From NCBI GenBank assembly GCA_963795085.1, contig CAWCFX010000004.1, forward strand, positions 288,001 through 352,000: DNA of 64,000 nt. The letters are read 5' to 3'. Each line of letters begins with the position of its first letter. Position 1 is the first letter of the stretch. Under the pieces are notes generated by a model. It saw only the letters and a program-made list of their open reading frames with translations, did not search any database and had not been told where the DNA came from. Both the position numbers and the translations under genes were made by a program. Shown here piece after piece: positions 2,341 through 58,128 of the stretch. Source of the DNA: an uncultured Gemmatimonadales bacterium (GTDB lineage Bacteria > Gemmatimonadota > Gemmatimonadetes > Gemmatimonadales > GWC2-71-9).

Positions 2341-3690
2341 ATGGGCGTGATCCACCTCCAGACCGAGATCCCCGGCCCGGCCAGCCGTGCCCTGCTGGCC
2401 CGGCGGGAGCGCGCCGTGTCGCGGGCGGTGCCGGCGACCACCCCGCTGGCCATCGTGCAGGCCGACGGTGCGATGGTGACCGACGCCGACGGCAACCGGC
2501 TTATTGATTTCGGGGGCGGGATCGGCACCCTTAACATCGGCCACCGGCATCCCGGGGTCATTGCCGCCATCCGGGAGCAACTGGACCGCTATCTCCACCT
2601 GGCCTTTCCGGTGTCGACCTACGAACCCTACGTGGCCCTGGCCGAGCGGATGAACCGGGTGACCCCGGGCGCCCACGAGAAACGCACCCTCTTTCTCAAC
2701 AGCGGGGCGGAAGCGGTGGAGAACGCGGTCAAGGCGGCCCGCTTCTTCACCGGGCGGCAGGCCATCGTCTGCTTCGACCATGCCTTTCACGGGCGCACCA
2801 ACCTGGCCCTCGGCCTGACAGCCAAGGTGATGCCCTACAAGAAGGGATTCGGCCCGTTCGCGCCGGAGATTTACCGGATTCCCTTTCCGTACTGCTACCG
2901 CTGCCCGGTGGCGGTACGGCGGCCGGCGGGAACCGGTGAGGCCTGCTGCCAGGCCAGCCGGACGTACCTGGACCAGCTGTTCGCCGGCGGGGTTGATCCG
3001 GGTTCGGTGGCGGCCATCGTCATGGAACTGGAACTGGGCGAGGGCGGGTTCGTGCCGGCGCCTGCCGAGTACGTCCGGGAACTGGCCGGGTTCGCGAAGG
3101 CGAACGGCATCCTGTTCATCGCCGACGAAATCCAGACCGGTTTCGGCCGCACCGGCAGGATGTTCGCGTCCGAACACTATGGCCTGGTGCCGGACCTCAT
3201 CGTCACCGCAAAATCGCTGGCGGGCGGGTTGCCGCTGGCCGCGGTGACCGGCCGCGCCGACATCCTTGATGCGCCGCAGGTCGGCGGCCTCGGCGGCACT
3301 TACGGCGGTAATCCCCTGTCCTGCGCGGCGGCGATCGCCGTGCTCGACGCGATGGAATCGGAGCAGATTACCGAGCGGGGCGCCCGGGCAGGCCAGCGGA
3401 TCCGGGAGCGGTTCCAGCGCTGGGCGGCCACTGATCCCGGTATCGGCGACGTCCGGGGCCTCGGCGCAATGATGGCGCTGGAACTGGTGCGCGACCCGGT
3501 CACCCGGGAACCGGACAAGGAACGCACCGGCCGGGTGCTTACCGAAGCACTGTCGCGAGGCGTGATCCTCCTCTCGGCCGGGACCTTTGGCAACGTGATC
3601 CGGGTGCTGGTGCCCCTCACCGTGAGCGACGACATCCTGGAGGAAGGCCTGGCGGTCATGCAGCAGGCGCTGGAGGCCACGCGGGGATGA
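2341..3690 (+). CDS. gabT: 4-aminobutyrate--2-oxoglutarate aminotransferase (class III PLP)
   Basis: DFGGGIG, NSGAEAVENAVK, HAFHGRT, IADEIQTGFGRTG, AKSLAGG (PLP Lys), GGTYGGNP. Confidence 0.88.
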   Translation: MGVIHLQTEIPGPASRALLARRERAVSRAVPATTPLAIVQADGAMVTDADGNRLIDFGGGIGTLNIGHRHPGVIAAIREQLDRYLHLAFPVSTYEPYVALAERMNRVTPGAHEKRTLFLNSGAEAVENAVKAARFFTGRQAIVCFDHAFHGRTNLALGLTAKVMPYKKGFGPFAPEIYRIPFPYCYRCPVAVRRPAGTGEACCQASRTYLDQLFAGGVDPGSVAAIVMELELGEGGFVPAPAEYVRELAGFAKANGILFIADEIQTGFGRTGRMFASEHYGLVPDLIVTAKSLAGGLPLAAVTGRADILDAPQVGGLGGTYGGNPLSCAAAIAVLDAMESEQITERGARAGQRIRERFQRWAATDPGIGDVRGLGAMMALELVRDPVTREPDKERTGRVLTEALSRGVILLSAGTFGNVIRVLVPLTVSDDILEEGLAVMQQALEATRG

Positions 3691-4550
3691 AGAAGCTCCG
3701 GTTCTGGCACTACCTCAAGGCGGCCTTCAACGCACGGCCCTTCGGCATGCTGGTGCCGCCCAACTGGATCGGGCTGGCGCTGTTCGGCCTGCTGGGACTG
3801 ATGAACCCCGGCTTCTGGGTAATCGGGGCGGGACTGGAGCTGGGATACCTGGGCGTGCTGATCACCAGCGGCCGTTTCCAGCGCGCGGTCGCCGCGCGGC
3901 ACAACTCGGCCACAACCGACCAATGGGGCGGCCGGGTGGAGGAACTGGTGGGCCAGCTCAGCGAAGCCGACCAGCGGAAATACGTCGCCCTGCTGGCCCG
4001 CTGCCGCTCCATCCTCGAGCAGCAGGGCCAGGGCGCGGAAACGAGCCTGGTCCAGGGCCTGGAAAGCCAGAACACCAGCCTCAGCCGGCTGGCCTGGCTC
4101 TATCTCCGGCTGCTGCTGATGCGCCGGGCTATCGACAAGGTGCTGGTGGACGACGGCGACCCGGGGAACCGGCACCTTTCCGATCGGATCACCACGCTGG
4201 AAAAGCGGCTGGCCGACGAATCGATCGGCGAAGACCTGCGCCGGAGCCTGGGCGGTCAACTGGCGATCCTGCAGCAGCGGATGGCCCAGCGCACCGAAGG
4301 CGCGGAGAAGATGGCCTTCCTCGACGCCGAGCTGACCCGGATCCATGAGCAGGTGGAACTGATCCGGGAACAGGCGGTGCTGTCCACCGACCCGGACCTC
4401 CTGTCGCAGCGCATTGACGAGATCACGACGACGCTGGGCGGTACCTCCCAGTGGATCCGCGACCAGCAGCAGGTGTACGGCGTCCTGCAGGACCTGGCCG
4501 CCGAGCCTCCACTCCTACCGCTCCGATCCCGGGGCAAAGCGAGCCAGTGA
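3687..4550 (+). CDS. Membrane-anchored coiled-coil protein (2 N-terminal TM segments), first gene of the PspA/AAA operon
   Basis: Hydrophobic N-terminus followed by a long helical/coiled-coil region; ATGA overlap with gabT and GTGA overlap with the ATPase gene. Confidence 0.8.
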   Translation: MKKLRFWHYLKAAFNARPFGMLVPPNWIGLALFGLLGLMNPGFWVIGAGLELGYLGVLITSGRFQRAVAARHNSATTDQWGGRVEELVGQLSEADQRKYVALLARCRSILEQQGQGAETSLVQGLESQNTSLSRLAWLYLRLLLMRRAIDKVLVDDGDPGNRHLSDRITTLEKRLADESIGEDLRRSLGGQLAILQQRMAQRTEGAEKMAFLDAELTRIHEQVELIREQAVLSTDPDLLSQRIDEITTTLGGTSQWIRDQQQVYGVLQDLAAEPPLLPLRSRGKASQ

Positions 4551-45517: not shown

Positions 45518-46093
45518 ATGCGGATGCAACTGGTTCTCCTCGGTACGCTTCTGGGTATGCCGGCCTGGTCGGGAGCTCAGCAGGCGGTGCGGGATGGTAG
45601 CGTGGCGGAAGGGACGCTCAGTTTCGATGGCCGGGCCACGGTCGGTAATTTCACGGGGACGACGTCCACCGTCACCGGCCGGTTGACCGGCGGCAGCGAT
45701 CTCGCCCAGGCACGGGGCTGGATCGAGGCGCCGGTGGAGTCGCTCAAGACCGGCAACGGCCGGCGCGACCGCGACCTTAACAAGTCCATGGAGTCCGACC
45801 AGTTCCCCGTCCTCCGGTTCGATCTCGCGGGCGTCGTGCCGGGGGTCACCCGGGGCGATTCGACCGCAGTCACCCTGACCGGCTCGTTTACGATTCACGG
45901 GGTGGTGCGTGAGGTCGCAGTGCCGGCCACCGTGATCCGGCTGCCGGGGCACCTCCGGCTCCGCACCAGTTTTCCGATGAACCTGGTCGATTACCAGATC
46001 GGCGGGCTGAGCAAGATGCTGGGCTTGCTCAAGATGTATCCGGACATCACGGTGCACGTGGATCTGCTGTTCTCGCAACCGACCGGCTCTTGA
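45518..46093 (+). CDS. YceI family protein
   Basis: Signal peptide; SLKTGNGRRDRDL, FP.LRF, GSFTIHGVVREV. Confidence 0.9.
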   Translation: MRMQLVLLGTLLGMPAWSGAQQAVRDGSVAEGTLSFDGRATVGNFTGTTSTVTGRLTGGSDLAQARGWIEAPVESLKTGNGRRDRDLNKSMESDQFPVLRFDLAGVVPGVTRGDSTAVTLTGSFTIHGVVREVAVPATVIRLPGHLRLRTSFPMNLVDYQIGGLSKMLGLLKMYPDITVHVDLLFSQPTGS

Positions 46094-46109
46094 CCGGGAG
46101 CGGTGCTAC

Positions 46110-46144
46110 GATCCACAGGGACAGGGTACCCCGCCCTGTGGATC
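46110..46144. terminator. Stem-loop between convergent genes
   Basis: GATCCACAGGG...CCCTGTGGATC perfect 11-bp stem; no clear U tract. Confidence 0.5.
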
Positions 46145-46199
46145 TCGATCAGACGACTTGGCCGTCAAAGTGGGTCGCCGATCTATTTCCTCGACATTC

Positions 46200-46634
46200 C
46201 TAGGGAGTGATACGCACCCGCCCAAGGCGGGAGACAACGACCTGGCGGCGGGCGCTGCCGCGGGTGACCACGAAGGTGGCGTTGGCAAAGCCCAGCGTCA
46301 CGCCGGTCGGGGCGAAGCGAAGCGTCCGGGGCGGCGAGGCCATGGCGGCACCCCGGGGTACCGGTCCCGGCGCCGCCCAGGCGGGGCTCATGGCCCCCCC
46401 GGCCTGAGTCACCCGGAGAATCAGGGAATCGGCGCGGATCTCCAGTTCGGTGGATCGTCCCTCCAGGACGGCGCGGATCCGGGCCCGCTGGTGGCTCCCC
46501 GCAATGTCTGCCGCGACGGCCTGGACGATGTATCGGTCGCGGAATCGGCCGGCCAGCGGCGCGGCCAGCGACGAGATGAGGCCCACGAGAACCAGCGCCA
46601 GGGCCACCTCCACCAGGGTCATTCCGTTCTTCAT
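46200..46634 (-). CDS. Prepilin-type pseudopilin (GspH/FimT-like)
   Basis: N-methylation motif G-MTLVE plus hydrophobic helix; LRFAPTG, VVVSRLGRVR. Confidence 0.85.
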   Translation of the reverse strand: MKNGMTLVEVALALVLVGLISSLAAPLAGRFRDRYIVQAVAADIAGSHQRARIRAVLEGRSTELEIRADSLILRVTQAGGAMSPAWAAPGPVPRGAAMASPPRTLRFAPTGVTLGFANATFVVTRGSARRQVVVSRLGRVRITP

Positions 46635-46848
46635 GGCCCAACCTTAGGCGGGTCGCTGCAAAGACCGGCATCCTATTATCGCAAGACGCAACACAATTAC
46701 GCGGCAGGGTCCCGCAGGCCATATTCGAGGGCCTTGTCAAACAACGAGTTGGATACCCTTTGCCCGGGGCAGGGGCAGGGCACGGTTTCTGCCAAACTAC
46801 CGGGACGTTGCGAAGACCGGTTTCTGCAGGAGCCCTCCCCCTGAGGCC

Positions 46849-46877
46849 TTGCTCCCCGGCGTCTCATTCGGCATACT
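46849..46877 (+). promoter_or_regulatory. Sigma-70 promoter of the TPR gene; a sigma-54-like GG-N10-GC also lies at 46778-46792
   Basis: TTGCTC-N17-CATACT; upstream GGGCACGGTTTCTGC. Confidence 0.55.
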
Positions 46878-46919
46878 AGCCGGAGCGACAACGGCGGGCT
46901 TTTTCTCTGGAGGCGGAGC

Positions 46920-48215
46920 GTGGTTGCTATTCCCTCGTTTGAGCTTTTCTCCCCGGACGACCTCCAGGTCGATTCGACCAGTTTCGGAACTTTTCTCAAT
47001 CGGGCCCGTACCGAGCGGGAGCAGGGCCGGGACGTGCCGGCTCGCATTGCGCTGGGAGCCTACCTGGGCGCCCGGCTGGTGGATCGCTGCCTCAAGCTGA
47101 CCGCCGGGGACGACGAGCAGGAAGGGTTCCGCTGGCAGCTGGAAAGCACCCGCAAGTTCCTGGACGACCTCCCTGCCGGCGATGCCGAAGTGTCCCACCT
47201 GCTGGGGATCATCGACGCCATCACCTCACCGCCCAAACACCGGGATACCGTGCTCCGCATGGCGCTGGTGGCCTACGGCTATTTCCTGGAATACGAGGCC
47301 CGGCTCGAGGAGGCCCTCGAGGTCCTCGGCCTGAGCGCCCGCACCTACCGCGCCGACCTCCCGCTGGTAGATGCCGCTACCCTCTCGCTATTCGTCGCCC
47401 GGCTGAACCGGATGCTGGCCCGGTGGGACCGGGCCACCCGGGCGTATGCCATGGCCGAGCAGGCCGGCCTCGAGGCCCGCGACCTCAGCACCGTGATGCT
47501 GGCCCGGATCGGCAGGGCCAACACCATGTGGGGCCAGGGTAACCTGCCGGCCGCCCGTGCCGCGCTGGAAGCGGTCGTGGCCGAAACAGATTCTCCTGAA
47601 CTGTTCGATTGCCGGGGCCGCGCCCTGAGCGATCTCTCGGTAGTTCTTGAGCGGCAGGGATACCTGCTGGAGGCGATCCGGACCCGGTACGATGCCCTGC
47701 GCACTCTGCGCGACGAGGTGCAGCGGACCCGCGCCTTTGGCGACCTCGGTATCACCTTGCGGATGGTCGGGGAGTACGACGCGGCTCGCCGCAGCCTGGA
47801 GATCGTCATGCGGTCGGACGCGGGCCTTCTCCTCCGGGCCAACTCCTGCCTGGAAATGATGGAACTGGAGTCCGCGGTCGGCAACCGGATGGCCTTCGAG
47901 CGCTATCGCCAGGAAGCGCGCACCTTCGAGGACCGAATGCCCCCCTCTATGGCGATCGATTACCGCTATAAAGTAGGCATCGGATTCGCCCGGTTTGGCA
48001 AGGAGGCCAAGGCTCGGTCCATGTTGCGGGAAGCGCTGGCCCTGTCGGAGGCCCACGGGTTGAACCAGTGGTATTTCAAGGTGGACCGGGTGCTGAATGG
48101 TCTGGCCCTCTGCGAGGAGCAGACCCAGGAAACAGCCGCAACCACCGAGTCCAGTGAAGTGGCCTCGGCGGCTGCGGAGATCGTGGCGGGACTGCTCGAG
48201 CTTACCGGAGTGTAG
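46920..48215 (+). CDS. Cytoplasmic TPR-repeat protein (candidate peptide receptor)
   Basis: About six TPR-like helix pairs (e.g. ARIGRANTMWGQGNLPAARAAL, AFGDLGITLRMVGEYDAARRSL); no signal peptide or TM; GGAGG SD. Confidence 0.85.
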   Translation: MVAIPSFELFSPDDLQVDSTSFGTFLNRARTEREQGRDVPARIALGAYLGARLVDRCLKLTAGDDEQEGFRWQLESTRKFLDDLPAGDAEVSHLLGIIDAITSPPKHRDTVLRMALVAYGYFLEYEARLEEALEVLGLSARTYRADLPLVDAATLSLFVARLNRMLARWDRATRAYAMAEQAGLEARDLSTVMLARIGRANTMWGQGNLPAARAALEAVVAETDSPELFDCRGRALSDLSVVLERQGYLLEAIRTRYDALRTLRDEVQRTRAFGDLGITLRMVGEYDAARRSLEIVMRSDAGLLLRANSCLEMMELESAVGNRMAFERYRQEARTFEDRMPPSMAIDYRYKVGIGFARFGKEAKARSMLREALALSEAHGLNQWYFKVDRVLNGLALCEEQTQETAATTESSEVASAAAEIVAGLLELTGV

Positions 48216-48224
48216 ACCTTCCGG

Positions 48225-48368
48225 TTACTGGCATGAACGGCCGCCGGAACCCTGGGTTTCCGTGCAAGGTGCGGTATCGGGCCGGGGTCCGCTGGCGTCA
48301 GCGCAGGCGGCGGTCCCAAACAGGGTGAGCGTGACCAGCAGAAGGGCGAGGCGCTTGGTGGTGGACAT
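48225..48368 (-). CDS. 47-aa lipoprotein-like peptide precursor (absent from the ORF track)
   Basis: AAGGAG-6nt-ATG; MSTTKRLALLLVTLTLFGTAAC-ADASGPRPDTAPCTETQGSGGRSCQ; GC-rich third positions; fills the intergenic gap. Confidence 0.85.
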   Translation of the reverse strand: MSTTKRLALLLVTLTLFGTAACADASGPRPDTAPCTETQGSGGRSCQ

Positions 48369-48408
48369 CGTTAGCTCCTTGTAAGCTAGGTTCCTGGGGG
48401 GCGCCCTT

Positions 48409-48476
48409 ATTATCGGGCGGACCGATGGCCCTGTTTAGGCCCTTTTTACGACATTCAGGGACGGTTTTGCGACATT
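48409..48476 (-). promoter_or_regulatory. 21-bp-phased direct repeat (candidate AraC-family operator) next to a weak promoter for the peptide gene
   Basis: TTTTACGACATT (48444-48455) and TTTTGCGACATT (48465-48476); minus-strand TAAACA-N17-GATAAT at 48437-48409. Confidence 0.6.
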
Positions 48477-48477
48477 G

Positions 48478-49269
48478 ATGCTGCTTCTGGCGGTGGTGCC
48501 CGGTCTTCGGCTGCATCAACTCCGTACAGCTGATCCAAAGCTGTACAGCTTTCTTGGGCTGCCGTCGTGGGCCGAGGTGGTGGATACCATCCGGCACCGC
48601 CCGGTTGAGATGGTGGTGGTGGACCCGTTGCTGGACGGGCACATGCGGACCCGTGAGATCGAACGGCTGCGAGTGCTGTTTCCATCGCTGCCAATTCTGA
48701 TCTACACCAGCCTCACGCCGGAAGCGCCGAGCGCGTTGCTGGAGTTGGGCCGGATCGGGATCCGGCGGGTCATTCTGGCCCGTTTCGACGACAGCCCGGC
48801 GAACCTGCGGGTCATTCTGCGGGACGAGCTGGAGTGCACGGTCTCCCGCAAAGTGATCCAGGGAGTGGAACCCCTGCTGGTCGGCCTGCCGGCGCAGGCC
48901 CGGTGGGCGCTGGCGTCCCTGCTGCACGCCCCGTCCGAGGTGGCCACGGTGACGGAGCTGGCCGAGCGGGTTCGGATCAAGCGGCGAACCTGTGAACGCT
49001 GGTTTGCGCGGGTTGGATTGCCCTCTCCCCGAATGGTCCTGGTGCTGGCGCGGCTGCTCTACGCCCATCGGCTGCTCCAGGATCCCGGGTACACGGTCGA
49101 GGACGTGGCGGTGAAACTCGGCTATGGCCGGACCCGGAGTCTGCAGTCCCAGTTCAAGGAGATCTTCGGCCTGACGGCGGGTGAGGTGCGGCTTTCGCTG
49201 ACCGTGGAGGAGGCGCTGGACTTGGTAACCAAGCGGTATTTTGCCGGACTCAACAAGGCGGCATCGTAA
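48478..49269 (+). CDS. AraC-family regulator with a receiver-like N-terminal domain
   Basis: EMVVVDP..LPILIYT; TVTELAERVRIKRRTCERWF; TVEDVAVKLGYG..FKEIFGLT. Confidence 0.88.
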   Translation: MLLLAVVPGLRLHQLRTADPKLYSFLGLPSWAEVVDTIRHRPVEMVVVDPLLDGHMRTREIERLRVLFPSLPILIYTSLTPEAPSALLELGRIGIRRVILARFDDSPANLRVILRDELECTVSRKVIQGVEPLLVGLPAQARWALASLLHAPSEVATVTELAERVRIKRRTCERWFARVGLPSPRMVLVLARLLYAHRLLQDPGYTVEDVAVKLGYGRTRSLQSQFKEIFGLTAGEVRLSLTVEEALDLVTKRYFAGLNKAAS

Positions 49270-49670
49270 TGGCCAGGGTACTGCTCATCGACGATGAACC
49301 CTCGGTGCGGAATGCGCTGGAACGCGCGCTTCGGTATTTCGGCTACGACGTGATGTCGGCCGCGGGGGGGGACTCCGCCTATGAGCTGCTGCAGCACGAG
49401 ACCTTCGATGCGATCCTGCTGGATATCCGGATGCCGCTCATGTCGGGTGACGCGCTCTTCCTTGCGCTGGTGCGCAGGTGGCCCGAGCTGCGCGACCGCA
49501 TCATCCTGATGAGCGGCGACCCCGACAATGCCACCGAGGGCTGGTCGGCCGAGCTGAAGAGCCGTCCGCTGCTGGCCAAGCCGTTCACACTGGACGCGCT
49601 CAAGCACTGCCTCACCAGCGTCCTGTCCCGCCAGGTTCAACCCCGTCCCAAGTTCGGCAACGGCGCATGA
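49269..49670 (+). CDS. Single-domain response regulator
   Basis: LLIDDE, LLDIRMP, MSG, AKPF. Confidence 0.92.
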   Translation: MARVLLIDDEPSVRNALERALRYFGYDVMSAAGGDSAYELLQHETFDAILLDIRMPLMSGDALFLALVRRWPELRDRIILMSGDPDNATEGWSAELKSRPLLAKPFTLDALKHCLTSVLSRQVQPRPKFGNGA

Positions 49671-50323
49671 CCGGATCGAATCCCGGTGCGCCGGGTGCCG
49701 ATCCGCTGCGAGTTCTCCGGGAGTACCGTGCGCTGGCTCCGTGGAGCCTGCGGGATCTCGCCGCCCTGGCCGGTTCCATCCTCGACGCCTCCGCCATCTT
49801 CCCCCTCAATGTGTCGGCCCGGGCCCGCCCCACCGAACGGACTATCCGGTACTACGTGGCGCAGGGACTGGTGAGTCCCCCCGAGGGGCGGGGTACCGCC
49901 GCGACCTATAGCTACCGCCATCTGCTCCAGGTGCTGGCCATCAAGCTCCGCCAGATGGAAGGCTCCACCCTGGAGACGATTACCCGGGACCTGGCCGACC
50001 AGGGCGGCGACGTGATCGAGCGGCGAGTCGCCGCGGCGCTGGGGGCTGGACTCCCGGCACCGTCCCTGATCACCGTGACCCAGCCGGGCGCCCCGCGCGG
50101 CCGGGTGGGCCGAGCCATCCAGGACTGGCAGTGGGGCAGCAGCAACGGCGACCTGGAGCCTCCCTCCAGCTGTCGCCGGATTCCCCTGGGCCATGGCATA
50201 GAGTTGCTGATGGATGAGCGGCATCCGCTGCTGCTGGCCAACCCGGACGAGCAGGCGATCGTCAGCGCCTTTCGCGCGGCCCTGGCGGAACTGGCGGGAG
50301 CGGACCTGCCGGCAGACCGTTAG
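49667..50323 (+). CDS. MerR-type HTH regulator
   Basis: WSLRDLA..PTERTIRYYVAQGLVSPP..ATYSYRHL; ATGA overlap. Confidence 0.85.
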   Translation: MTGSNPGAPGADPLRVLREYRALAPWSLRDLAALAGSILDASAIFPLNVSARARPTERTIRYYVAQGLVSPPEGRGTAATYSYRHLLQVLAIKLRQMEGSTLETITRDLADQGGDVIERRVAAALGAGLPAPSLITVTQPGAPRGRVGRAIQDWQWGSSNGDLEPPSSCRRIPLGHGIELLMDERHPLLLANPDEQAIVSAFRAALAELAGADLPADR

Positions 50324-50346
50324 CACTCTCTTGAGCGAGGAGTTCC

Positions 50347-50904
50347 ATGGGTACCATTCTCGTGATTGTCGTCCTGGCCGTGCTGGCGCTGTGGATCATC
50401 GGCGCCTATAACGCCCTGATCGCCCTCAAGAACCAGGTGATGAACGCCTGGAAGCAGATCGACGTGCAGCTCAAGCGGCGGCACGACCTGATTCCCAACC
50501 TGGTCAGCACCGTCAAGGGCGCCATGACCTTCGAACGGCAGACCCTGGAGGCGGTGATCACGGCCCGTAACCAGGCGGTCGGCGCCCAGGGCGTGGCGGC
50601 GACCGCCCGGGCGGAGGGTGAGTTGACGCAGGCGCTGGGCCGGTTGTTCGCCCTGACCGAGGCCTATCCCGATCTCAAGGCGACCGGGAATATCGCGCAG
50701 CTGCAGGAGGAAATTACCAGCACCGAGAACAAGATCGGCTTTGCCCGGCAACTCTACAACGACACGGCCACGGCGTACAACACGAAGCAGATGCAGTTTC
50801 CCACCAACCTGGTCGCCGGATTGGCCAAGGCGGTACCGGCCGAACTGTGGGAGATCGACGACGCATCCGAGCGGGCGGTCCCCAAGGTCGACCTCTCCAC
50901 ATGA
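50347..50904 (+). CDS. lemA: LemA family protein
   Basis: AWKQIDVQLKRRHDLIPNLV, EAYPDLKA, ENKIGFARQLYN. Confidence 0.95.
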   Translation: MGTILVIVVLAVLALWIIGAYNALIALKNQVMNAWKQIDVQLKRRHDLIPNLVSTVKGAMTFERQTLEAVITARNQAVGAQGVAATARAEGELTQALGRLFALTEAYPDLKATGNIAQLQEEITSTENKIGFARQLYNDTATAYNTKQMQFPTNLVAGLAKAVPAELWEIDDASERAVPKVDLST

Positions 50905-50982
50905 TGACGGTCAGCAGCCGGCAGTAGGCTGTGCGCGGGGCCTTCCTGCGCACCGCGCGCTTCTCACTGCGCACCCCTCGCT
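50905..50982. repeat. Degenerate heptamer-phased palindromic spacer
   Basis: TGACGGT CAGCAGC CGGCAGT AGGCTGT GCGCGGG ... TGCGCAC CGCGCGC TTCTCAC TGCGCAC. Confidence 0.5.
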
Positions 50983-50985
50983 TCT

Positions 50986-51996
50986 ATGTCGGACTCTAAT
51001 CTTTTCTCCCAGCAGGAGAGCAACCGGAAGCGAACCCGCTGGCTGGTGGCCGGCTTTCTCCTGTTCTTTGGCTGGGTCGGCTTCGGAGGGGATCTCGGCC
51101 TCTACCTGCTGACGGCGGAGCAGCAGTCCGGATACCGGCACACGGTTCCGTTGATCGGCATCGTGATGACGCTGGCAGCCGGCGCCATCTGCTGGTCCTC
51201 CTTCCGCAAAGGCCCCGCCCGGGTCCTGTGGGCCGCGGGCGCCTCGGAGGTGGTGGAGGCGGTGACCCCGGCGCACCGTCAGCTCGCCAACGTGGTCGAG
51301 GAAATGGCGATCGCCTCCGGCGTGCCGGTGCCGAAGATCTGGGTGGTGCCGGATCCCGATCCCAACGCCTTTGCCACCGGGCTCGATGCCCAGCGGGCCA
51401 ACATCGCGGTGACCGAAGGCCTGCTGCAGCTGCTCGATCGCGATGAGCTGCAGGCGGTCATCGCGCACGAGATGGCCCATATCAGAAATCTCGACGTGCG
51501 GCTGATGACCATGCTGGCCGCGATGGTCGGCGCCATCGCGCTCATATCCGATGGCATGGGACGGATGCTGGGGCGGGGGGTCCGGGTCGGGGGCGGGGGG
51601 AAAGGCCGCGGCGGCAAGAAGGGCAATCAGCTTGCCATCATCATCCTGGTGCTCTGGGTACTGACCCTCCTCGTGGCTCCGCTGATCACCCGGCTCCTCG
51701 CCATGGGGGTAAGCCGGAAGCGCGAATTCCTGGCCGACGCCTCGGCCGCCCAGTTCACCCGTAACCCTGACGCCCTGGCCAGCGCCCTCGAGAAACTGGA
51801 CGGCGCCCCCGGCGCCACCCGGGCCATCACCCGCGGCGCCGCCCATCTCTGTATCGTGGACCCCGGCGAACGAAAGCTCTCCCAGCGGGACGGACTGCTG
51901 GGCGACATCTTTGCCTCCCACCCGCCCATCCGGCACCGGATCACCCGGCTCAAGGGGATGGCGTACCAGCAGGCGAACGCAACCAGCGACCGGTGA
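50986..51996 (+). CDS. htpX: HtpX-like M48 membrane zinc protease
   Basis: PNAFATG, AHEMAH, SRKREFLAD, FASHPP; follows lemA. Confidence 0.88.
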   Translation: MSDSNLFSQQESNRKRTRWLVAGFLLFFGWVGFGGDLGLYLLTAEQQSGYRHTVPLIGIVMTLAAGAICWSSFRKGPARVLWAAGASEVVEAVTPAHRQLANVVEEMAIASGVPVPKIWVVPDPDPNAFATGLDAQRANIAVTEGLLQLLDRDELQAVIAHEMAHIRNLDVRLMTMLAAMVGAIALISDGMGRMLGRGVRVGGGGKGRGGKKGNQLAIIILVLWVLTLLVAPLITRLLAMGVSRKREFLADASAAQFTRNPDALASALEKLDGAPGATRAITRGAAHLCIVDPGERKLSQRDGLLGDIFASHPPIRHRITRLKGMAYQQANATSDR

Positions 51997-52035: not shown

Positions 52036-53082
52036 TTACCGCCCCTGTTCCATCGCCCTCAGGATCTCCTCGGTAAATGATCCCGGATCGAATGGCAGGG
52101 CGACGGTGTGGTCGGCCCCGGCGGCACGCTCGGCCTCCCCGCTGCCATCCACCAGCGCGACCACGGCGTAGGCGCGGGCGACCGCCGGGCGAAATCCTGC
52201 CAGCGGGGACTTGTCCTGGGCCGGCTGGCAGATGACGACCAGGCTCACGCCCAGGGTCTCGGCTTCTGCCGCCAGGGTCTCCCCGTCGGGAACCCGCCGG
52301 ACGGAGAAGCCGGCGTGCTTGAGAAGCAGCGCGACGATCCGCGCCGTGTCGTTCTCGTCGACCCAGAGCAGGGCCTCGCCCGGGGAGATGCCTGCCGGTT
52401 GGGCCCCCGGCGCCTGCAGGTCGATCATGCCTACATCCCCGACGTACTGCCGGGCGCTGGCCTGGCTCAACCCGCCGACCCGTCTGAGCACGCCGGCGAT
52501 CCGTGCCAGCGCGTCCCGGACCGCCTCCAGTGAACACCGGGTCTCGTCGTCCAGGGTTCCCTGCAGCAGCAGCTCGATCTCCACCCCGGCCGCCATGAGG
52601 GGATTGTTGATCTCGTGGTGCAGGGTGACGTTGAGCTGCCCCACCGCCGCCAGGCGTTCGGCCCGTACCAGGTCCTCTTCCGCCGCCGCCAGCGCGCTGC
52701 GGAGCGCGCGGGTCCGGCGCACCCGTTCCAGCACCTGGGGCAACAGCTTGGGCAGCGAGGCATCCTTGATGAGATAGTCATCCGCGCCCTGTCGGAGAGC
52801 GGCGGCTGCGAGCGCTTCATCCCCGTTGCCGGTGATCAGGATGATCGAAGGGCGGCCGGGGCGGGCCCGGAGCGCGGGGATGGCCTCGAGACCCGTGGTA
52901 TCCGGCAACTGGTGATCCAGGAGGACGATGTCAAAGGGCCCGGCCGCGGCGAGCGCCTCCCTCCCGGTCGTCACCACCTGCGGATCGGTGGCCGCCTGGG
53001 CGCGCACCAGCTGGCGCAGCATGGCGCCCATTGCGGGGTCGTCATCGACCACCAGGAGCCGCAGCAGGGTCCGCTCAGGCAC
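52036..53082 (-). CDS. Receiver + HisKA (no ATPase domain) + pseudo-receiver protein
   Basis: VVDDD, LLDHQLPD, DYLIK; H-box TLHHEINNPL; no N/G boxes; C-terminal LLWVDEND..LPFDP. Probable GTG start at 53082. Confidence 0.8.
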   Translation of the reverse strand: MPERTLLRLLVVDDDPAMGAMLRQLVRAQAATDPQVVTTGREALAAAGPFDIVLLDHQLPDTTGLEAIPALRARPGRPSIILITGNGDEALAAAALRQGADDYLIKDASLPKLLPQVLERVRRTRALRSALAAAEEDLVRAERLAAVGQLNVTLHHEINNPLMAAGVEIELLLQGTLDDETRCSLEAVRDALARIAGVLRRVGGLSQASARQYVGDVGMIDLQAPGAQPAGISPGEALLWVDENDTARIVALLLKHAGFSVRRVPDGETLAAEAETLGVSLVVICQPAQDKSPLAGFRPAVARAYAVVALVDGSGEAERAAGADHTVALPFDPGSFTEEILRAMEQGR

Positions 53083-54640
53083 GGTTGGGACCCGATTCGG
53101 TCCGGAACCCGACCCGGGCAAACTTCTCCCACGTGGTCTTGCCGCGCCAGGCGTCCCACAGACCCCGCAGCCGCCAGTAGAGCGTGATGTGCCGAAAGCT
53201 GAACGGGAGATTCTCCAGCACCGAGTAGAGCAGCAGGATCAGCACATCCCGCTTGCGGCTGAACGGCAGCAGCCCGCGCTGCAGCCGGTCGGCGAGCCCG
53301 AACCGGAATCGCCACGCCCCGACCAGGACGGCGAAGAGGTTGACCAGGATGCCGTAGCCCAGCGAGGCGAGGAAGAACGCCACTGCGTACGCCTCGTTGA
53401 GGAAGTTGACCCCCAGCGCATACTCCAGGATCAGAAAGACGATGACGAACAGGTAGCCGACGATCTCGATGATCGGCCCCCAGTACTCGAATAGCCAGAA
53501 GGTGGGGAGCGCGAACCAGCCGATGCGGCCGAACTTCCGCCGGAACAGCATGTCCCGGTGGTAGTGCAGCGACTCCCGCAGGCCGCGGTACCAGCGGCCC
53601 CGCTGCTTGCGCAGGGAGTCGAGCCGCTCCGGCACTTCGGTCCAGGCCACCGGGTGGGGCAGAAAGGCGATGCGCTTGTCCCGCATCTTGTCCCGCACGA
53701 ACCGGTGCAGCCGCACGATGATTTCCATGTCCTCGCAGACGGTGCCGGTCCGGGCCCCGATATACTCCTCCACGATCCGGTGCGTGACGAAAGGGGTCAG
53801 GTACCCGCCGGCCCGGATCACCGTTTCCTTCTCGAACACCGCGAACACGCCGGACAGGATGAGAATGGCGTCCAGCTTGTCGAGACCGGTCCGCCCGGTG
53901 GTGAAGGACCGCAGGTACTCCACCATCTGGAACCGGGCCAGCGGGTTGGACGGCAGCCCCACGCTCACCACCCGCCCGTTGCGGATGGCGCATCCGTTGG
54001 CGATTGCTACCTGGCCGCCGACGGCAACTACCCGGGGATCCTCCTGGATGACCCGCATCAGCTCCTTCAGCGCCCGCTGGTCGAGGATCGAATCGGCGTC
54101 GAGCGAAACGAAATAGGGTGCGGTGGACGCGTTGATCCCCGCGTTGAGCGCATCGGCCTTGCCGGCGTTCTCCTTGTCGATGACCATCACCTTGGTGACG
54201 TTCTTCGGCAGGGGGATGGTGGCCTCGTAGGTGGCTCGGACCCGGGCGGTGCCGATGGCGTCGCGGTAGGCGAGGTCGGTACGGCGAAGCCGGAACGCCT
54301 GCTTCAGCACCTCCAGAGTACGGTCCGCCGAGCCATCGTTGACGACCACCACCTCGAACCGGGGATAGTCCACATGGATGAGGTTGGTCACCGAGTCCAC
54401 GATGGTGACCTCCTCGTTGTACGCCGGTACCACCATCGTGATCGGCTTGGTGGAGTCGTGGGCGTCGATCAGGTCGAGGTCTTCGATGAAATGTCCGGCC
54501 ACCCGCCGGCGGACCTGGCGGGCCGACAGGATGATGAGCGAGAGGGTATAGGTATTGTACAGGATGAAATAGGCCAGGAAAAAGGGCTGCAGCACCAGGG
54601 CCACAACCCCGACGACCAGGATGACCTGTTCCCGGCTCAC
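53075..54640 (-). CDS. Processive GT2 glycosyltransferase (PgaC/IcaA-like)
   Basis: VPAYNEE, VNDGS, GKADALN, SLDADS, VCEDME, QRGRW; TM segments. Confidence 0.92.
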   Translation of the reverse strand: MSREQVILVVGVVALVLQPFFLAYFILYNTYTLSLIILSARQVRRRVAGHFIEDLDLIDAHDSTKPITMVVPAYNEEVTIVDSVTNLIHVDYPRFEVVVVNDGSADRTLEVLKQAFRLRRTDLAYRDAIGTARVRATYEATIPLPKNVTKVMVIDKENAGKADALNAGINASTAPYFVSLDADSILDQRALKELMRVIQEDPRVVAVGGQVAIANGCAIRNGRVVSVGLPSNPLARFQMVEYLRSFTTGRTGLDKLDAILILSGVFAVFEKETVIRAGGYLTPFVTHRIVEEYIGARTGTVCEDMEIIVRLHRFVRDKMRDKRIAFLPHPVAWTEVPERLDSLRKQRGRWYRGLRESLHYHRDMLFRRKFGRIGWFALPTFWLFEYWGPIIEIVGYLFVIVFLILEYALGVNFLNEAYAVAFFLASLGYGILVNLFAVLVGAWRFRFGLADRLQRGLLPFSRKRDVLILLLYSVLENLPFSFRHITLYWRLRGLWDAWRGKTTWEKFARVGFRTESGPNRA

Positions 54641-57600
54641 CGGGGCTCCCGTCCCGGTTCGAGGACCGCGCCCACCGCCTCGCGGACCTCGTGGACCGGA
54701 TCGTTCCGGGCCACTTCGCCCGCCAGCGGATCGTCCATCAGGGCCAGCGCGATGCCCGCCGCGATCCGTCGCCGCGCCTCGGGACTGGTCCGCGCCACGG
54801 TCTGCAACTCCTCCAGGCCCGCCACCTCCCGGAGGGCGGCAGCTGCGGTCTCCCGCCCGAAACTGTCTGGCAGGTCGATCCGGGCGCCCCGAAGCAGCTG
54901 GGCGCTCCAGGCCGCGGCCCGCACGCCCTCGTCAGGATCCCGTAATAGTGGCGCGGTATCCGGGCCCTGGGTGCTCGAGGCCAGGGCGAGCGCCGCCCGG
55001 CGCCGGACATCCGCTTCGGGATCGGTGAAGAACGAAGCCAGCCGATCGAACTGCCCCGCGGCGGCCCACGCCGCTACTGCGGCGAGCCGTACGGCCGGGA
55101 CCGGATCCATGCTCAGGGCGCGAAGGCTCTCTTCCGACACCAACTCGGGCCGGTGCCGCCAGAGCAGGGCCAGTTCCTCCCGCACCTCCGGGCTGGCGCT
55201 CCGGCCGATGGTCGTCAGCAACGACGGGAGATCGGGGTGGTTGATGTAGCGGGCGATGCGCGCGATGACGACGCCCTCGTGGGAACCCGGCGCCGCCCCC
55301 ATGGTCAGGTCCACGAAGGCGTGAAAGGCCTGCTCGGCGTGGCGGGCCACCGCCTGCAGGACCACGATGTCATCGTCTTCCGCTCGAAGCAGGCGAATCA
55401 GCAGGGGGAGCGCCTGCCCCGGCTCCATCCGCGCGAACAGGGTCACCGCGACGCGGCGGACCGCCGGATGCGGATCGGTCACCGCCCGTCGCGCCGAGAG
55501 GAATAATTCGTCCGGGTCCAGCAGATCCGCCACGGCGGCCAGGGCCGCGGCCCGCACTTCGGGGCTGGGATCGCTGCGTACGGCATACACCAGCGCCCGC
55601 CGGCTTCGCTCGCCTTTGAAGGCCTGGATCGCGGAGACCAGCCGCACTCGCTCCCGCGGGTCCAGCACCCCCCGCATGCCTTCCACCAGGGAGGCCTCCA
55701 TCTGTTCCCGGTTCAGGCTGCCCAGCGCGCGCAGTTCCACCTGCTGAGCCTCCTTGAGGCGCTGCCGGATCTGGCGAAACCCGGGATCATGCTGCAACCG
55801 GTCGCGCAGGAACTCCCGGACTGGTTCTTCATCCATCATCTGCAGAACCTGGGCGACGATGCTCTCCTGGTCAAAGGCACCGATGCCGAGGGCGGCCGCC
55901 GCCCGTACGTTGAGCGGCTCCTCCGAGCGGCAGGCCGCCAGCAGGGCGGCATCGCCGCCGGGCACCCGGAGCAGCCCGGTGGCCAGCGCGGCGCGCTCCC
56001 GCACCCGCGCCGACGGATCGCCCTGGAGCAGCCCGAGAATCTCCGGTCCCGCGCGGGTCGCCCCGAAGCGGGAGAGTGCCTCGACCGACTTGGCGCGGAC
56101 TTCTTCGTCCGGGTCGTTGAGTCCCTGCTGCAGCAACTCCTCACTGCGCTCGCCGCCGAGGTGGACCAGAGCGTCCACCGCCAGGGAGCGGACCACCGGG
56201 TCTTCGTCCTTCCACACGATCTCCAAGAGTCCAGCCGAGGCCGGCGAGTGGATCCGGGCGAGGATCCGTACGATGGCCAGCCGGGCCTCGCGGTCGCGGG
56301 ATTCCATCAGGATATCGAGCAGGGCGGGGAGGGCATTGACGTCGATCCGGGCCACCGCATCGGCGATGACCTCGCGGAGGTCGGCACTGCCGGTCTGGAA
56401 GGCCCGTACCAGCGCCGGCAGGATGGGCGGGCCCCCCACCCGCCCCAGCGCGTGTGCGGCGCTGCGCCGGGCATGCGGGTCCGAGTCCACCAGCAGCTTG
56501 AGCAATTCGGGGACGGCCCACGATCCACCCCCATCGGCGACGCCGTCGGCCGCCGCGGCGCGTACCTCGGGCACCGGGTCCTTGAGCAGGCGGGCCAGTT
56601 CGGGCTGGGCATCCTTCGCCTGGATCTGGCCGAGGGCGCGGGCGGAGGCGGCCCGGACCATCGGCTCGTAGTCGCCGGTGCGAGGCCGGATCATGCTGGC
56701 CACCTCGGCCTCGCCCAGTTCGCCGACCAGTTGCATCGCGGCGGTGCGGACATGCTGGTCCGCATCGCCCAGCCCGTCGAGCGCCGACGGGACGGCGTCC
56801 TTGATGCCCAGGTGCCGGAGCGCATTGTACGCTTCGGCCCGGATTTCCGGTTCGGCGTCGTGGGTGGCCACGTGGATCAGTTCGATCGCCAGGTCCCGCC
56901 GGCCGGCCTGCATGATCGCGGTGATGACGGTCTGGCGGACCATGGTCGAGGGATGGGCCAGCTGCTCGGCCAGCAGCTCCCGGGCGCCGGCCAGGCCGAA
57001 CTTGGTCAGGATCTCCATCGCCTCGGTGGAGGCGGTGCCGGACTCGATCTGGCTGATGATCCGGTTGGGCACGCCCAGCCGCTCCAGGGCGACCGCGGCA
57101 CGAATCCGGATCTCCGGGTCGGTGTCGTCGAGGGCCAGCATGAGAGGGCCTTCCGAGACCGCTCCGATCTGTTCCAGCGCCTCGACGCTGCGCATCCGGA
57201 CCCACCAGGCGGGATCGCCCAGGGCGCGAACCAGGGTGTCGATGACCTCGGTATCGTTGAACTGGCCCAGCGCACCGGCGATGCGGGCACGGACAAACGG
57301 CGCCGGATCGGTGAGCAGGTGGTCGAGGAGATAGGTGACGGCGCGGTGGTCGCCCAGTTTGCCGAGGGAGGCGGCCGCCTTGGCCCGGACTTCGTCATCG
57401 AGGTCGTCCAGGGCGCGCACCAGGGCAGGAAAGGCGCGAGTGGCGCGTACCTCCCCCAGGATGTTGGCCGCCCAGGCGCGGGCTGGATGTTGGGACGGTT
57501 CCTCCAGGAAGCCGATCATCGGCTCCACGACCATGTCGCCGTGGCGGGCCAGGATGTCGGCGATGCGGGGGGCCAGCCACACCTCGGCTTTCTTGAGCGC

Positions 57601-58128
57601 CTCGGAAAGCGGGCCGACCGCCCGCGGATCCGCGATCCTGGCCAGGGCGCGGAGGGCAATCTCGCGGACATCGGCGTCTTCGGCCCGGGTGGCCTGGATG
57701 GTTTCCAGCAGGACGGGGACCGCGGCGGCGTTGCCCACCCGGCCCAGCAGCTCGGCGGCAAAGGCGCGCTCCCGCCACTTCTTGGCGTGGCGCAGGCGGT
57801 CGATGTATTTGGTGACCAGCCCCAGCCGGTCATATGCGTCGAGCAGCCAGTCGGGGCGTTCGGTCTGGCCCCGGGCCTGTTCTTCGAGAACGGCCTCCAG
57901 CGCGGAGAAGTCGCGCAGTGTCCGGGCCTGGTGGAGGACCGGCTCCAGGAGGGCCCGGTCCCGGGTGGCGAGTCCCGCGACGAGGTCACGATAAAACCCC
58001 TTGCGGACGGACAGCCGGCGCTCCAGCCGGGTCAGATACGTGGTGTAGATCAGCCAGACGGCCACCGCCACCACGCCCATAACGGCGAGGCCGGCGGCAA
58101 CCACCAAGATGATATCGAGAAAGGTCAC
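54637..58128 (-). CDS. Large membrane-anchored HEAT-repeat protein (1163 aa)
   Basis: N-terminal TM followed by more than 20 repeats of type L.DP...VR..AA.ALG. Confidence 0.9.
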   Translation of the reverse strand: MTFLDIILVVAAGLAVMGVVAVAVWLIYTTYLTRLERRLSVRKGFYRDLVAGLATRDRALLEPVLHQARTLRDFSALEAVLEEQARGQTERPDWLLDAYDRLGLVTKYIDRLRHAKKWRERAFAAELLGRVGNAAAVPVLLETIQATRAEDADVREIALRALARIADPRAVGPLSEALKKAEVWLAPRIADILARHGDMVVEPMIGFLEEPSQHPARAWAANILGEVRATRAFPALVRALDDLDDEVRAKAAASLGKLGDHRAVTYLLDHLLTDPAPFVRARIAGALGQFNDTEVIDTLVRALGDPAWWVRMRSVEALEQIGAVSEGPLMLALDDTDPEIRIRAAVALERLGVPNRIISQIESGTASTEAMEILTKFGLAGARELLAEQLAHPSTMVRQTVITAIMQAGRRDLAIELIHVATHDAEPEIRAEAYNALRHLGIKDAVPSALDGLGDADQHVRTAAMQLVGELGEAEVASMIRPRTGDYEPMVRAASARALGQIQAKDAQPELARLLKDPVPEVRAAAADGVADGGGSWAVPELLKLLVDSDPHARRSAAHALGRVGGPPILPALVRAFQTGSADLREVIADAVARIDVNALPALLDILMESRDREARLAIVRILARIHSPASAGLLEIVWKDEDPVVRSLAVDALVHLGGERSEELLQQGLNDPDEEVRAKSVEALSRFGATRAGPEILGLLQGDPSARVRERAALATGLLRVPGGDAALLAACRSEEPLNVRAAAALGIGAFDQESIVAQVLQMMDEEPVREFLRDRLQHDPGFRQIRQRLKEAQQVELRALGSLNREQMEASLVEGMRGVLDPRERVRLVSAIQAFKGERSRRALVYAVRSDPSPEVRAAALAAVADLLDPDELFLSARRAVTDPHPAVRRVAVTLFARMEPGQALPLLIRLLRAEDDDIVVLQAVARHAEQAFHAFVDLTMGAAPGSHEGVVIARIARYINHPDLPSLLTTIGRSASPEVREELALLWRHRPELVSEESLRALSMDPVPAVRLAAVAAWAAAGQFDRLASFFTDPEADVRRRAALALASSTQGPDTAPLLRDPDEGVRAAAWSAQLLRGARIDLPDSFGRETAAAALREVAGLEELQTVARTSPEARRRIAAGIALALMDDPLAGEVARNDPVHEVREAVGAVLEPGREPR

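Follow-up and report, generated by a model that had tools for sequence, protein, structure and literature searches.

A cassette of three genes, encoding a cytoplasmic tetratricopeptide-repeat (TPR) protein, a small lipoprotein-type propeptide and an AraC-family regulator, was identified in a 64,000-nucleotide (nt) stretch of DNA from an uncultured Gemmatimonadales bacterium (contig CAWCFX010000004.1, positions 288,001 to 352,000; referred to here as the window). The TPR, peptide and AraC genes duplicate, move and diverge as a unit. We read the cassette, with a probability of about one in two, as a peptide signalling system that would work like the Rap/Phr branch of the RRNPP systems, with parts native to a diderm phylum. 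By analogy it is plausible that the cassette works like an RRNPP system; that it is a member of RRNPP is not supported by the sequences compared. The genome is 3.89 Mb in size and 93% complete, and the window lies on its contig 4.

An earlier note on the window had described a TPR reading frame of 431 amino acids (aa) ending 9 nt from the stop codon of a 47-aa reading frame on the opposite strand. Both were present in the sequence (Table 1), with positions 48216-48224 between them. The further traits claimed for the small open reading frame (ORF) were recovered as well, namely a Shine-Dalgarno sequence (AAGGAG, placed 6 nt ahead of the ATG), a signal peptide that ends in TAA-C, a Pro-containing linker and a C-terminal Cys loop with a final Q. 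Matches to HTH_18 and Response_reg agreed with the description of a divergent AraC gene joined to a gene for a single-domain response regulator (REC). The AraC gene is divergent from the propeptide gene across 106 nt, and its stop codon overlaps the start codon of the REC gene (TAATG), by which the two are translationally coupled. An ATG at 48478 may be the true start of the AraC gene. No Pfam family was matched by the 47-aa product.

The TPR protein was searched in 41 genomes, and a search with the AraC protein in contigs of one genome per species returned 64 loci. Loci entered the set through similarity of their TPR or AraC protein; the peptide was at no point a criterion. The pooled set comprised 134 loci, from which 101 distinct precursor genes were obtained after removal of duplicates; loci L010 and L116 derive from genomes flagged as unpublished. 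Relatives of the TPR protein occurred in 21 of the 41 genomes (14/24, 6/8 and 0/8 per family, with genome G000 excluded). An AraC homolog adjoined the TPR gene in 19 of 20 TPR-anchored loci, and likewise in 19 of 20 an ORF of 41-64 aa with signal peptide and lipobox lay between the two genes, convergent to the TPR gene. The AraC-anchored loci contained the lipobox ORF in 56 of 64 cases (55 by rule and 1 by eye), and seven of the eight loci without it offered less than 250 nt of upstream DNA. Of 105 unique loci in which 450 nt or more were available ahead of the AraC gene, 99 had the lipobox ORF at the same position and with the same orientation. Where at least 1700 nt were available (79 unique loci), the TPR gene was found in 76 and the TPR and peptide genes together in 73. 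The small ORF is judged from these sequences to be a real gene, beyond chance, because a homolog stands in the same place and orientation in 99/105 loci. Shine-Dalgarno-like sequences also precede homologous small ORFs in related loci. The ends of the TPR and peptide genes were separated by a median of 21 nt; of 99 cassettes, 85 had a gap of 50 nt or less and 38 one of 10 nt or less, and some of the gene pairs overlap by 4 nt.

The small gene is kept across at least two families of Gemmatimonadales and is recognisable in more distant families of the class; wherever it occurs, it lies tail to tail with the TPR gene and head to head with the AraC gene. All 64 AraC-anchored loci were titled Gemmatimonadota, Gemmatimonadales, Gemmatimonadaceae, Gemmatimonadetes or 'bacterium HR33'. 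NCBIfam contained no family for the TPR protein or the peptide, and Rfam gave no match in positions 46000-50500. The earlier note had asked whether TPR homologs are accompanied by small lipopeptide ORFs and whether the linkage of the three genes is conserved. The ORFs were present in 19/20 and 73/79 loci, and the linkage was kept in duplicated copies too. In one locus (L065, AraC gene at 2998-3768) the TPR gene immediately precedes the AraC gene and has the same orientation; a lipobox ORF was looked for between the two and not found, and the locus may be a rearranged or peptide-less variant.

The behaviour of duplicated copies was followed in 18 extra-copy loci from multi-copy genomes and two loci of a further family, all obtained by a phylum-wide search with the AraC alignment. 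The TPR gene, the lipobox peptide gene and the AraC gene stood in the same arrangement in 16 of the 18 extra-copy loci; the remaining two were a degenerate copy (L134) and an AraC paralog alone (L132). The two loci of the further family (G078; L143 and L144) contained AraC paralogs without TPR or peptide genes. In one genus, 6 of 6 second copies (L125-L130) were without the MerR-like and LemA genes found beside the first copies, while the REC gene was retained in four of the six (L125-L128). The linkage is more than synteny, because cassettes were duplicated to new sites without their other neighbours. By the same comparison the MerR-like gene is part of the ancestral locus and not of the mobile cassette, since it is absent beside L125-L130. 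No sensor kinase was found among the genes of the relocated cassettes. Two cassettes within one genome differ in the loop sequence of their peptides.

Three distant families of the same class were also covered. Two of their genomes, 6.5-6.8 Mb in size, carried 9 and 10 TPR paralogs of about 440-450 aa. A convergent lipobox ORF was present in 10 of the 20 loci returned from these families, and 8 of the 10 products end in ..[ILM]-G-S-G-x. A fusion of the TPR protein to a helix-turn-helix (HTH) domain was looked for in a distant genome and none was seen; the two long TPR frames met there were a 577-aa TPR protein (L146) and a TPR-HD_5 protein (L153). The latter (L153:1288-3042, HD-GYP-type) was caught by the TPR profile and is unrelated to the cassette. 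The window genome contained a second AraC-like match (26% identity, C4:196880-197647), for which the TPR query found no TPR partner. Viral contigs, searched with the TPR protein, yielded no relative.

The precursors of the peptide were 39-104 aa long, with a median of 48 (107 precursors). A signal peptide with lipobox was present in 101 of 101, and the A/S/T-A/G-C pattern occurred in all homologs listed. With LspA and Lgt both encoded in the genome and the lipobox ..TAA|C in the window's own precursor, the sequence characters of a bacterial lipoprotein are complete, and the lipobox predicts processing by Lgt and LspA and a lipid anchor rather than cleavage by signal peptidase I. Directly after the lipobox Cys follows a conserved stretch resembling C-[AS]-D-x-T-[GA]-P. 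A generic lipoprotein motif was ruled out as its source, as it was present in no more than 4 of the 163 candidate lipoproteins of the genome. Outside the window's genus, precursors mostly begin M-S/T-R-R-x-R-L-L, an n-region whose double Arg resembles a twin-arginine export motif in part only; the window's precursor has K-R in place of the double Arg.

The tail behind the lipobox Cys contained two further Cys residues in 94 of 101 precursors and none in seven, but never an odd number. The loop between them measured 7 residues in 45 of 107 precursors and 8 residues in 24. The tail is the hypervariable part of the peptide. Its unit, whether in the loop or linear, follows the pattern [D/S/G]-x-[Q/N]-[G/N]-S-[G/N]-T, in which the Ser is nearly invariant and position 2 is hypervariable; loops with QG[ST]GGR occur in the window's genus. 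Distinct sequences made up 41 of 44 seven-residue loops and 34 of 39 linear C-terminal heptamers. The loop was the only copy of the unit in 57 of 101 precursors, including that of the window. In 17 it was accompanied by an identical linear copy which ends the protein, in 6 by other repeats and in 14 by an unlike tail, and 7 precursors had a linear unit only. A C-terminal sorting tag of the PEP-CTERM type was ruled out, as the precursor ends at the unit and no membrane helix follows.

A precursor's own unit was repeated in 23 of 101 cases, 17 of which end exactly with the repeated unit, and some precursors carry six to nine tandem units. Exact repeats were found in 24 of 68 precursors, one of the 24 being a repeat of the linker and not of the tail unit. 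The copies were identical in amino acids while their codons differed synonymously in 31 of 31 comparisons (101 of 255 codons), a test conditioned on exact repeats. Close relatives have different units, altered alike in both copies. Judged from these sequences, selection keeps the copies within a precursor equal while the unit drifts between lineages, because the amino acids are identical despite the synonymous codon differences. Equal copies are as expected if each must fit one specific partner, and identical loop and linear copies would fit a single binding site which reads an extended peptide. Lineage-specific units, identical repeats within a gene and several diverged cassettes per genome are together traits suggestive of pheromones.

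The partner in the cassette, the TPR protein, gave sub-threshold TPR matches in Pfam. Pfam found no HTH domain in it, as the earlier note had held, and neither a signal peptide nor a hydrophobic N-terminus was present. The AlphaFold2 model (pLDDT 88, pTM 0.87) consisted of 22 helices. When the model was compared with solved structures by Foldseek, the best E-values were obtained with LGN/Pins and the best TM-scores with NprR and Rap chains (TMt 0.60-0.64). The model matched whole Rap, NprR and AimR chains, and its residues 38-42 onward aligned with Rap residues 4-9 onward (RapH, RapF and the Rap protein of pLS20). The modelled fold is compatible with a Rap-like receptor; kinship is not proven by fold. 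R52, R164, Y176 and D188 are invariant residues of the TPR protein. Near neighbours of the TPR protein in a protein atlas were Gemmatimonadota TPR clusters alone, with up to 1559 members.

The TPR protein was the fastest-diverging protein of the block, with a mean identity of 0.65 compared with 0.82 for AraC, and it was the lower of the two in 30 of 30 independent nearest pairs. Within the peptide, identity over the same 30 pairs fell from the signal peptide (0.70) through the linker (0.64) to the core (0.58). Co-variation of receptor and peptide is no more than suggestive from these alignments. A complex prediction of the TPR protein with precursor residues 18-47 gave a score of 0.02 (mark 0.32), which counts neither for nor against binding.

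The N-terminal domain of the AraC protein was not detected as a receiver by Pfam. The AlphaFold2 model (pLDDT 91) nevertheless showed a (beta-alpha)5 domain at residues 1-119, which Foldseek matched to Spo0F (6ifh, TMt 0.84, root-mean-square deviation 2.3 over 122 columns) and to 2qxy (0.83), and the receiver-like domain named in the earlier note was thereby borne out. The DNA-binding domain matched AdpA (3w6v, TMt 0.80); together with HTH_18 this accounts for the C-terminal double helix-turn-helix of AraC/XylS regulators. The AraC alignment has A-V-P in place of the acidic pair behind strand 1 and is without a Lys-Pro behind strand 5, whereas Asp50 is nearly invariant and the Thr is kept. The domain has the fold of a two-component receiver but lacks the acidic pocket and the Lys, and is therefore classed, on the model, as a pseudo-receiver. 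Control by a protein partner appears more likely for such a domain than control by phosphorylation.

A promoter scan of the spacer between the propeptide and AraC genes found one sigma-70-like site, compared with 0.1 expected in shuffled sequences. The tandem TTTTRCGACA repeat abuts the -35 element of this peptide promoter and extends to the AraC start. It was conserved in an alignment of 16 related intergenic regions, and of three occurrences of the motif in the 3.89-Mb genome two are those at 48444-48474. The repeat is a candidate operator of the AraC regulator, and the layout would suit an AraC-type activator of the peptide promoter which also touches its own start. The TPR and peptide transcripts probably overlap, since the gene ends leave no room for separate terminators; such overlapping convergent transcripts may belong to the regulation. 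Within the AraC coding sequence, in its 5' part (48524-48546, plus strand), is a hairpin that resembles a terminator and has a T-rich tail; one was found and 0.4 were expected in shuffled sequences, and it is possibly due to chance. A look-up of RNA sequencing runs for positions 46900-49700 returned none.

Read as a signalling system of the Rap/Phr kind, the cassette would operate as follows. The precursor would be exported and lipidated at Cys22 by way of Lgt and LspA, and its loop would be closed by a disulfide in the periplasm. A protease would then free the C-terminal unit, and in many relatives also the second, linear copy at the very C-terminus. The peptide would accumulate outside the cell and be imported, perhaps through one of the four Opp-type binding-protein systems, and it would be reduced. 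In the cytoplasm it would bind to the groove of the TPR protein, which, having no DNA-binding domain, would act in the manner of Rap by holding or releasing the degenerate receiver of the AraC protein and perhaps also the free receiver protein. AraC would bind the tandem TTTTRCGACA sites beside the peptide -35 element and set the output of both the peptide gene and its own operon, which would form a feedback loop. Convergent transcription across the short gap (median 21 nt) may in addition let the receptor and peptide genes influence each other through antisense transcripts. The steps needed by this model are at least possible in the host, because the window genome encodes one LspA, one Lgt, four DsbA-like proteins (Thioredoxin_4) and four Opp-type binding proteins (SBP_bac_5).

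Several observations weigh against this reading. The strict rule of no or two Cys residues points to a function of the oxidised, exported form, and a cytoplasmic receptor would not meet this form until it had been reduced. Classical RRNPP propeptides have no lipid anchor, and the diderm host needs an extra passage of the peptide through the outer membrane. The window's own peptide carries the loop copy alone; moreover, the repeat analysis covers exact repeats, and 14 precursors have a C-terminal tail unlike the loop. Concerning the receptor, unrelated TPR proteins scored about as well as the Rap-type chains (APPBP2 26.0, a subunit of the anaphase-promoting complex/cyclosome 25.0 and MalT domain III 24.0). 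The family profile, when compared with solved structures, matched generic TPR proteins (OGT at 7.5e-11, LGN and kinesin light chain), with no Rap or NprR in the best 60 of 100 matches. The correlation of TPR with core divergence, controlled for AraC, was low (partial r 0.23 over 342 dependent pairs; 0.31, p = 0.10, over 30 independent ones), and AraC showed a similar partial correlation of 0.18. As the whole block of GspH-like, TPR, peptide, AraC, REC, MerR-like, LemA and M48 genes is syntenic, orthologous linkage alone is weak evidence. Of the proposal in the earlier note, an RRNPP-analogous system with a lipidated, disulfide-closed peptide, the conserved linkage, the pheromone-like tails and the fold match to Rap, NprR and AimR have stood; the family profile and the similar scores of unrelated TPR proteins weigh against it, and the proposal is partly supported.

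The Cys rule is best accounted for if the oxidised lipopeptide is itself the end product in the envelope or at the surface, as a tethered ligand, an adhesion or kin tag or the signal for a membrane sensor, with the TPR and AraC proteins controlling its expression and the TPR protein never meeting the peptide. Two tail Cys residues in 94 precursors or none in 7, together with tight loop sizes, suggest a folded, oxidised form outside the cytoplasm. The lipobox is kept throughout, 57 of 101 precursors have only the loop, as does that of the window, and the canonical free receiver in the operon implies input from a kinase. However, this explanation accounts neither for the identical linear C-terminal copy in 17 precursors and the up to nine tandem units nor for a cytoplasmic TPR partner which evolves fastest and travels with the peptide gene, and the relocated cassettes are without a sensor kinase; we regard it as unlikely. 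A partner switch coupled to secretion, similar to that of IpgC and MxiE, is somewhat less likely still. In that case the TPR protein would bind the unit of the precursor before export, and export would free it to co-activate or release AraC, which would report export flux and not cell density. Control of an AraC activator by a TPR chaperone through secretion of the substrate is an established logic, the core of the cassette (TPR protein, exported peptide and AraC) corresponds to it, and specific, co-diversifying units and repeats would also fit recognition in the cytoplasm. Against it, the TPR protein, at 431 aa, can be aligned over the full length of Rap and NprR chains and is not a class II chaperone of 3.5 repeats. 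The Cys rule and the lipobox would be unexplained if the exported product were a mere by-product, and multi-copy units are better explained by more signal per precursor.

It is typical of some ribosomal natural products that one precursor carries several, hypervariable cores, and the units of the small gene are repeated up to nine times. On this ground the gene could specify a repeated-core precursor from which a modified peptide natural product or a bacteriocin is made, with the TPR and AraC proteins as regulators or immunity factors. No modifying enzyme, transporter or immunity gene was found in the conserved block or in the relocated cassettes, though, and the precursor has a lipoprotein signal peptide instead of a leader, while the tails are polar heptapeptides of Gly, Ser, Asn and Thr. 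This origin of the peptide is very improbable. That the genes are mere neighbours in a syntenic block, with no functional connection, was already disfavoured and is hardly credible. The order of the surrounding genes is indeed conserved, but 16 of 18 extra copies hold the TPR, peptide and AraC genes together at new sites without the other neighbours, and convergent lipobox ORFs occur once more in the distant families whose genomes hold 9-10 TPR paralogs (10/20 loci).

Table 1. Genes and sequence elements at the cassette locus (positions in the window)
Feature	Position	Strand	Description
TPR gene	46920..48215	+	431 aa, GTG start; cytoplasmic, all-helical; candidate peptide receptor and regulator partner
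Propeptide gene	48225..48368	-	47 aa, lipobox; convergent to TPR gene
Signal peptide of propeptide	48306-48368	-	residues 1-21, ends ..TAA before Cys
Lipobox Cys22 of propeptide	48303-48305	-	from sequence
Cys35-x10-Cys46 loop of propeptide	48231-48266	-	holds the variable unit; Pro-containing linker before, terminal Q after
Shine-Dalgarno AAGGAG of propeptide gene	48375-48380	-	6 nt before ATG
Sigma-70-like promoter of propeptide gene	48409..48437	-	-35 at 48432-48437, -10 at 48409-48414; consensus match
Tandem direct repeat TTTTRCGACA x2	48444..48474	+	21-nt spacing; candidate AraC operator
AraC-family regulator gene	48475..49269	+	HTH_18, E 1.5e-14; N-terminal degenerate (pseudo-)receiver
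REC gene (single-domain canonical response regulator)	49269..49670	+	133 aa; Response_reg, E 4.3e-19
MerR-like regulator gene	49667..50323	+	MerR_1, E 2.6e-8; start overlaps REC stop (ATGA)
LemA gene and membrane M48 (HtpX-like) peptidase gene	50347-51996		downstream of the regulators
GspH-like pseudopilin gene	46200-46634	-	solitary, N-terminal methylation motif; divergent from TPR gene

The neighbours of the cassette were conserved to different degrees in the 64 AraC-anchored loci. The MerR-like gene was kept in 58, the LemA gene in 55, the M48 gene in 51 and the GspH-like gene in 43; no pilus operon was found beside the GspH-like gene. Most orthologous loci had the REC gene behind the AraC gene; some cassettes were without it. 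The LemA and M48 genes were not part of relocated cassettes, and the M48 peptidase is a conceivable processor of the lipopeptide. Further downstream, positions 52036-58128 on the minus strand encode a receiver-HisKA protein of 361 aa without an ATPase domain visible to Pfam, followed by membrane-type ORFs of 521 aa and 1163 aa. The receiver-HisKA ORF was weakly conserved in a few related loci, where the two longer ORFs were not conserved. Phosphorylation of the free receiver protein by one of the three products is conceivable.

Peptide quorum sensing is framed as a trait of Firmicutes in the part of the RRNPP_Detector paper that was available (PMC10075063), and a search for the term 'Gemmatimonad' gave no hit in that part. 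The literature search, with supplementary files outside its range, found no paper joining Gemmatimonadetes or Gemmatimonadota with peptide signalling and no publication describing a cassette of TPR, lipopeptide and AraC genes. If the signalling interpretation is true, the principle of a pheromone read by a cytoplasmic TPR protein, held to be a hallmark of Bacillota, would extend to diderms, and there would be a first handle on cell-cell signalling in an abundant, barely studied soil phylum. With 41 of 44 seven-residue loops distinct and more than one cassette in a genome, short orthogonal peptide/receptor pairs would also be available as a natural library. A wider and more tentative view is that Gemmatimonadota may independently have evolved a peptide 'pherotype' language, with a disulfide-caged heptapeptide on a lipid anchor, often followed by free copies, a Rap-like TPR reader, a pseudo-receiver AraC protein and up to about 10 diverged cassettes per genome, serving in combination to discriminate between kin or strains. 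It would be the first RRNPP-type communication outside Gram-positive bacteria and would use a new ligand chemistry; this we hold to be possible, with the odds against it.

Among known systems, SicA-InvF is a pair in which a chaperone co-activates an AraC-family protein. For the corresponding pair of Shigella, the portion of PMC3299695 that was available describes MxiE as an AraC-family activator and IpgC as the chaperone of IpaB and IpaC, and that of PMC10701871 describes IpgC as a TPR protein, a class II chaperone of 3.5 repeats. IpgC-MxiE and the cassette have in common a TPR protein with an AraC-family regulator, and would share a secreted partner by which the TPR protein is titrated. As far as these portions go, the Shigella proteins differ in that the chaperone serves type III secretion, has 3.5 repeats and binds large translocators, and a small hypervariable peptide is not part of the system. 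A short genome-encoded peptide which acts on a cytoplasmic transcription factor in a diderm is known from PatS/PatX/HetN and HetR of heterocystous cyanobacteria. The active motif RG(S/T)GR with its G-S/T-G core, given in the available part of PMC7761841, resembles the G-S-G core of the cassette and the ..QG[ST]GGR.. loops of the window's genus, a likeness so short that it may be due to chance. HetR is not a TPR protein, and PatS, PatX and HetN are not described in that part as lipobox precursors.

In PrgX/TraA of Enterococcus, an RRNPP receptor is combined with a small peptide gene in opposed orientation, with antisense interplay, and a lipoprotein precursor is the source of the peptide. The cassette shares the opposed small peptide gene and a lipoprotein-type precursor as the putative source of the signal. 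It differs in that the pheromone of PrgX/TraA is the signal-peptide remnant of an ordinary lipoprotein, whereas the unit of the cassette is located in the mature C-terminal tail, and in that the candidate receptor has no HTH.

The closest comparison is with Rap-Phr, the RRNPPA branch without a DNA-binding domain, which occurs in Bacillus and its plasmids and phages. Receptors of RRNPP(A) systems are cytoplasmic TPR-type proteins homologous to Rap, Rgg, NprR, PlcR, PrgX or AimR, and their propeptides leave the cell by Sec and lose the leader to signal peptidase; Rap proteins bind response-regulator domains through an N-terminal helical bundle. RRNPPA pheromones, as far as they are described in the available part of PMC11343458, have 5-10 residues, usually derive from the C-terminus of a propeptide of about 50-120 aa, are present in 1-4 repeats and are re-imported by Opp; tandemly duplicated pheromones at propeptide C-termini are a described trait, and Rap proteins act on response regulators and bind receivers. 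The cassette departs from RRNPP(A) systems in its host, as those belong to Bacillota and mobile elements, while all relatives found here were from the diderm phylum Gemmatimonadota, with no phage copies in viral contigs searched with the TPR protein and no sequence-level relationship detected for that protein. Its peptide gene is convergent where those of Rap-Phr are co-directional and downstream, an orientation that departs from most of the systems described, its precursor has a lipobox signal peptide and a unit usually caged between two Cys residues, its partner is an AraC protein with a pseudo-receiver domain, and its TPR protein has an extra C-terminal helical pair. Phylum, lipobox, caged unit, convergence, AraC partner and the lack of detected kinship would set the cassette apart from RRNPP membership. 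On the other hand, in both systems the propeptide gene lies immediately beside the receptor gene (9 nt in the window, median 21 nt in 99 cassettes). Both have a cytoplasmic, all-helical TPR protein of about 360-430 aa without HTH, which in the cassette superposes along the whole chain on Rap. An adjacent exported-type propeptide of 40-100 aa with a C-terminal unit of 5-10 residues, sometimes in tandem, is likewise common to both as far as that source describes Phr-type peptides. In both, receiver-domain proteins are neighbours or targets, a genome can hold several diverged cassettes, and receptor and peptide diverge fast.

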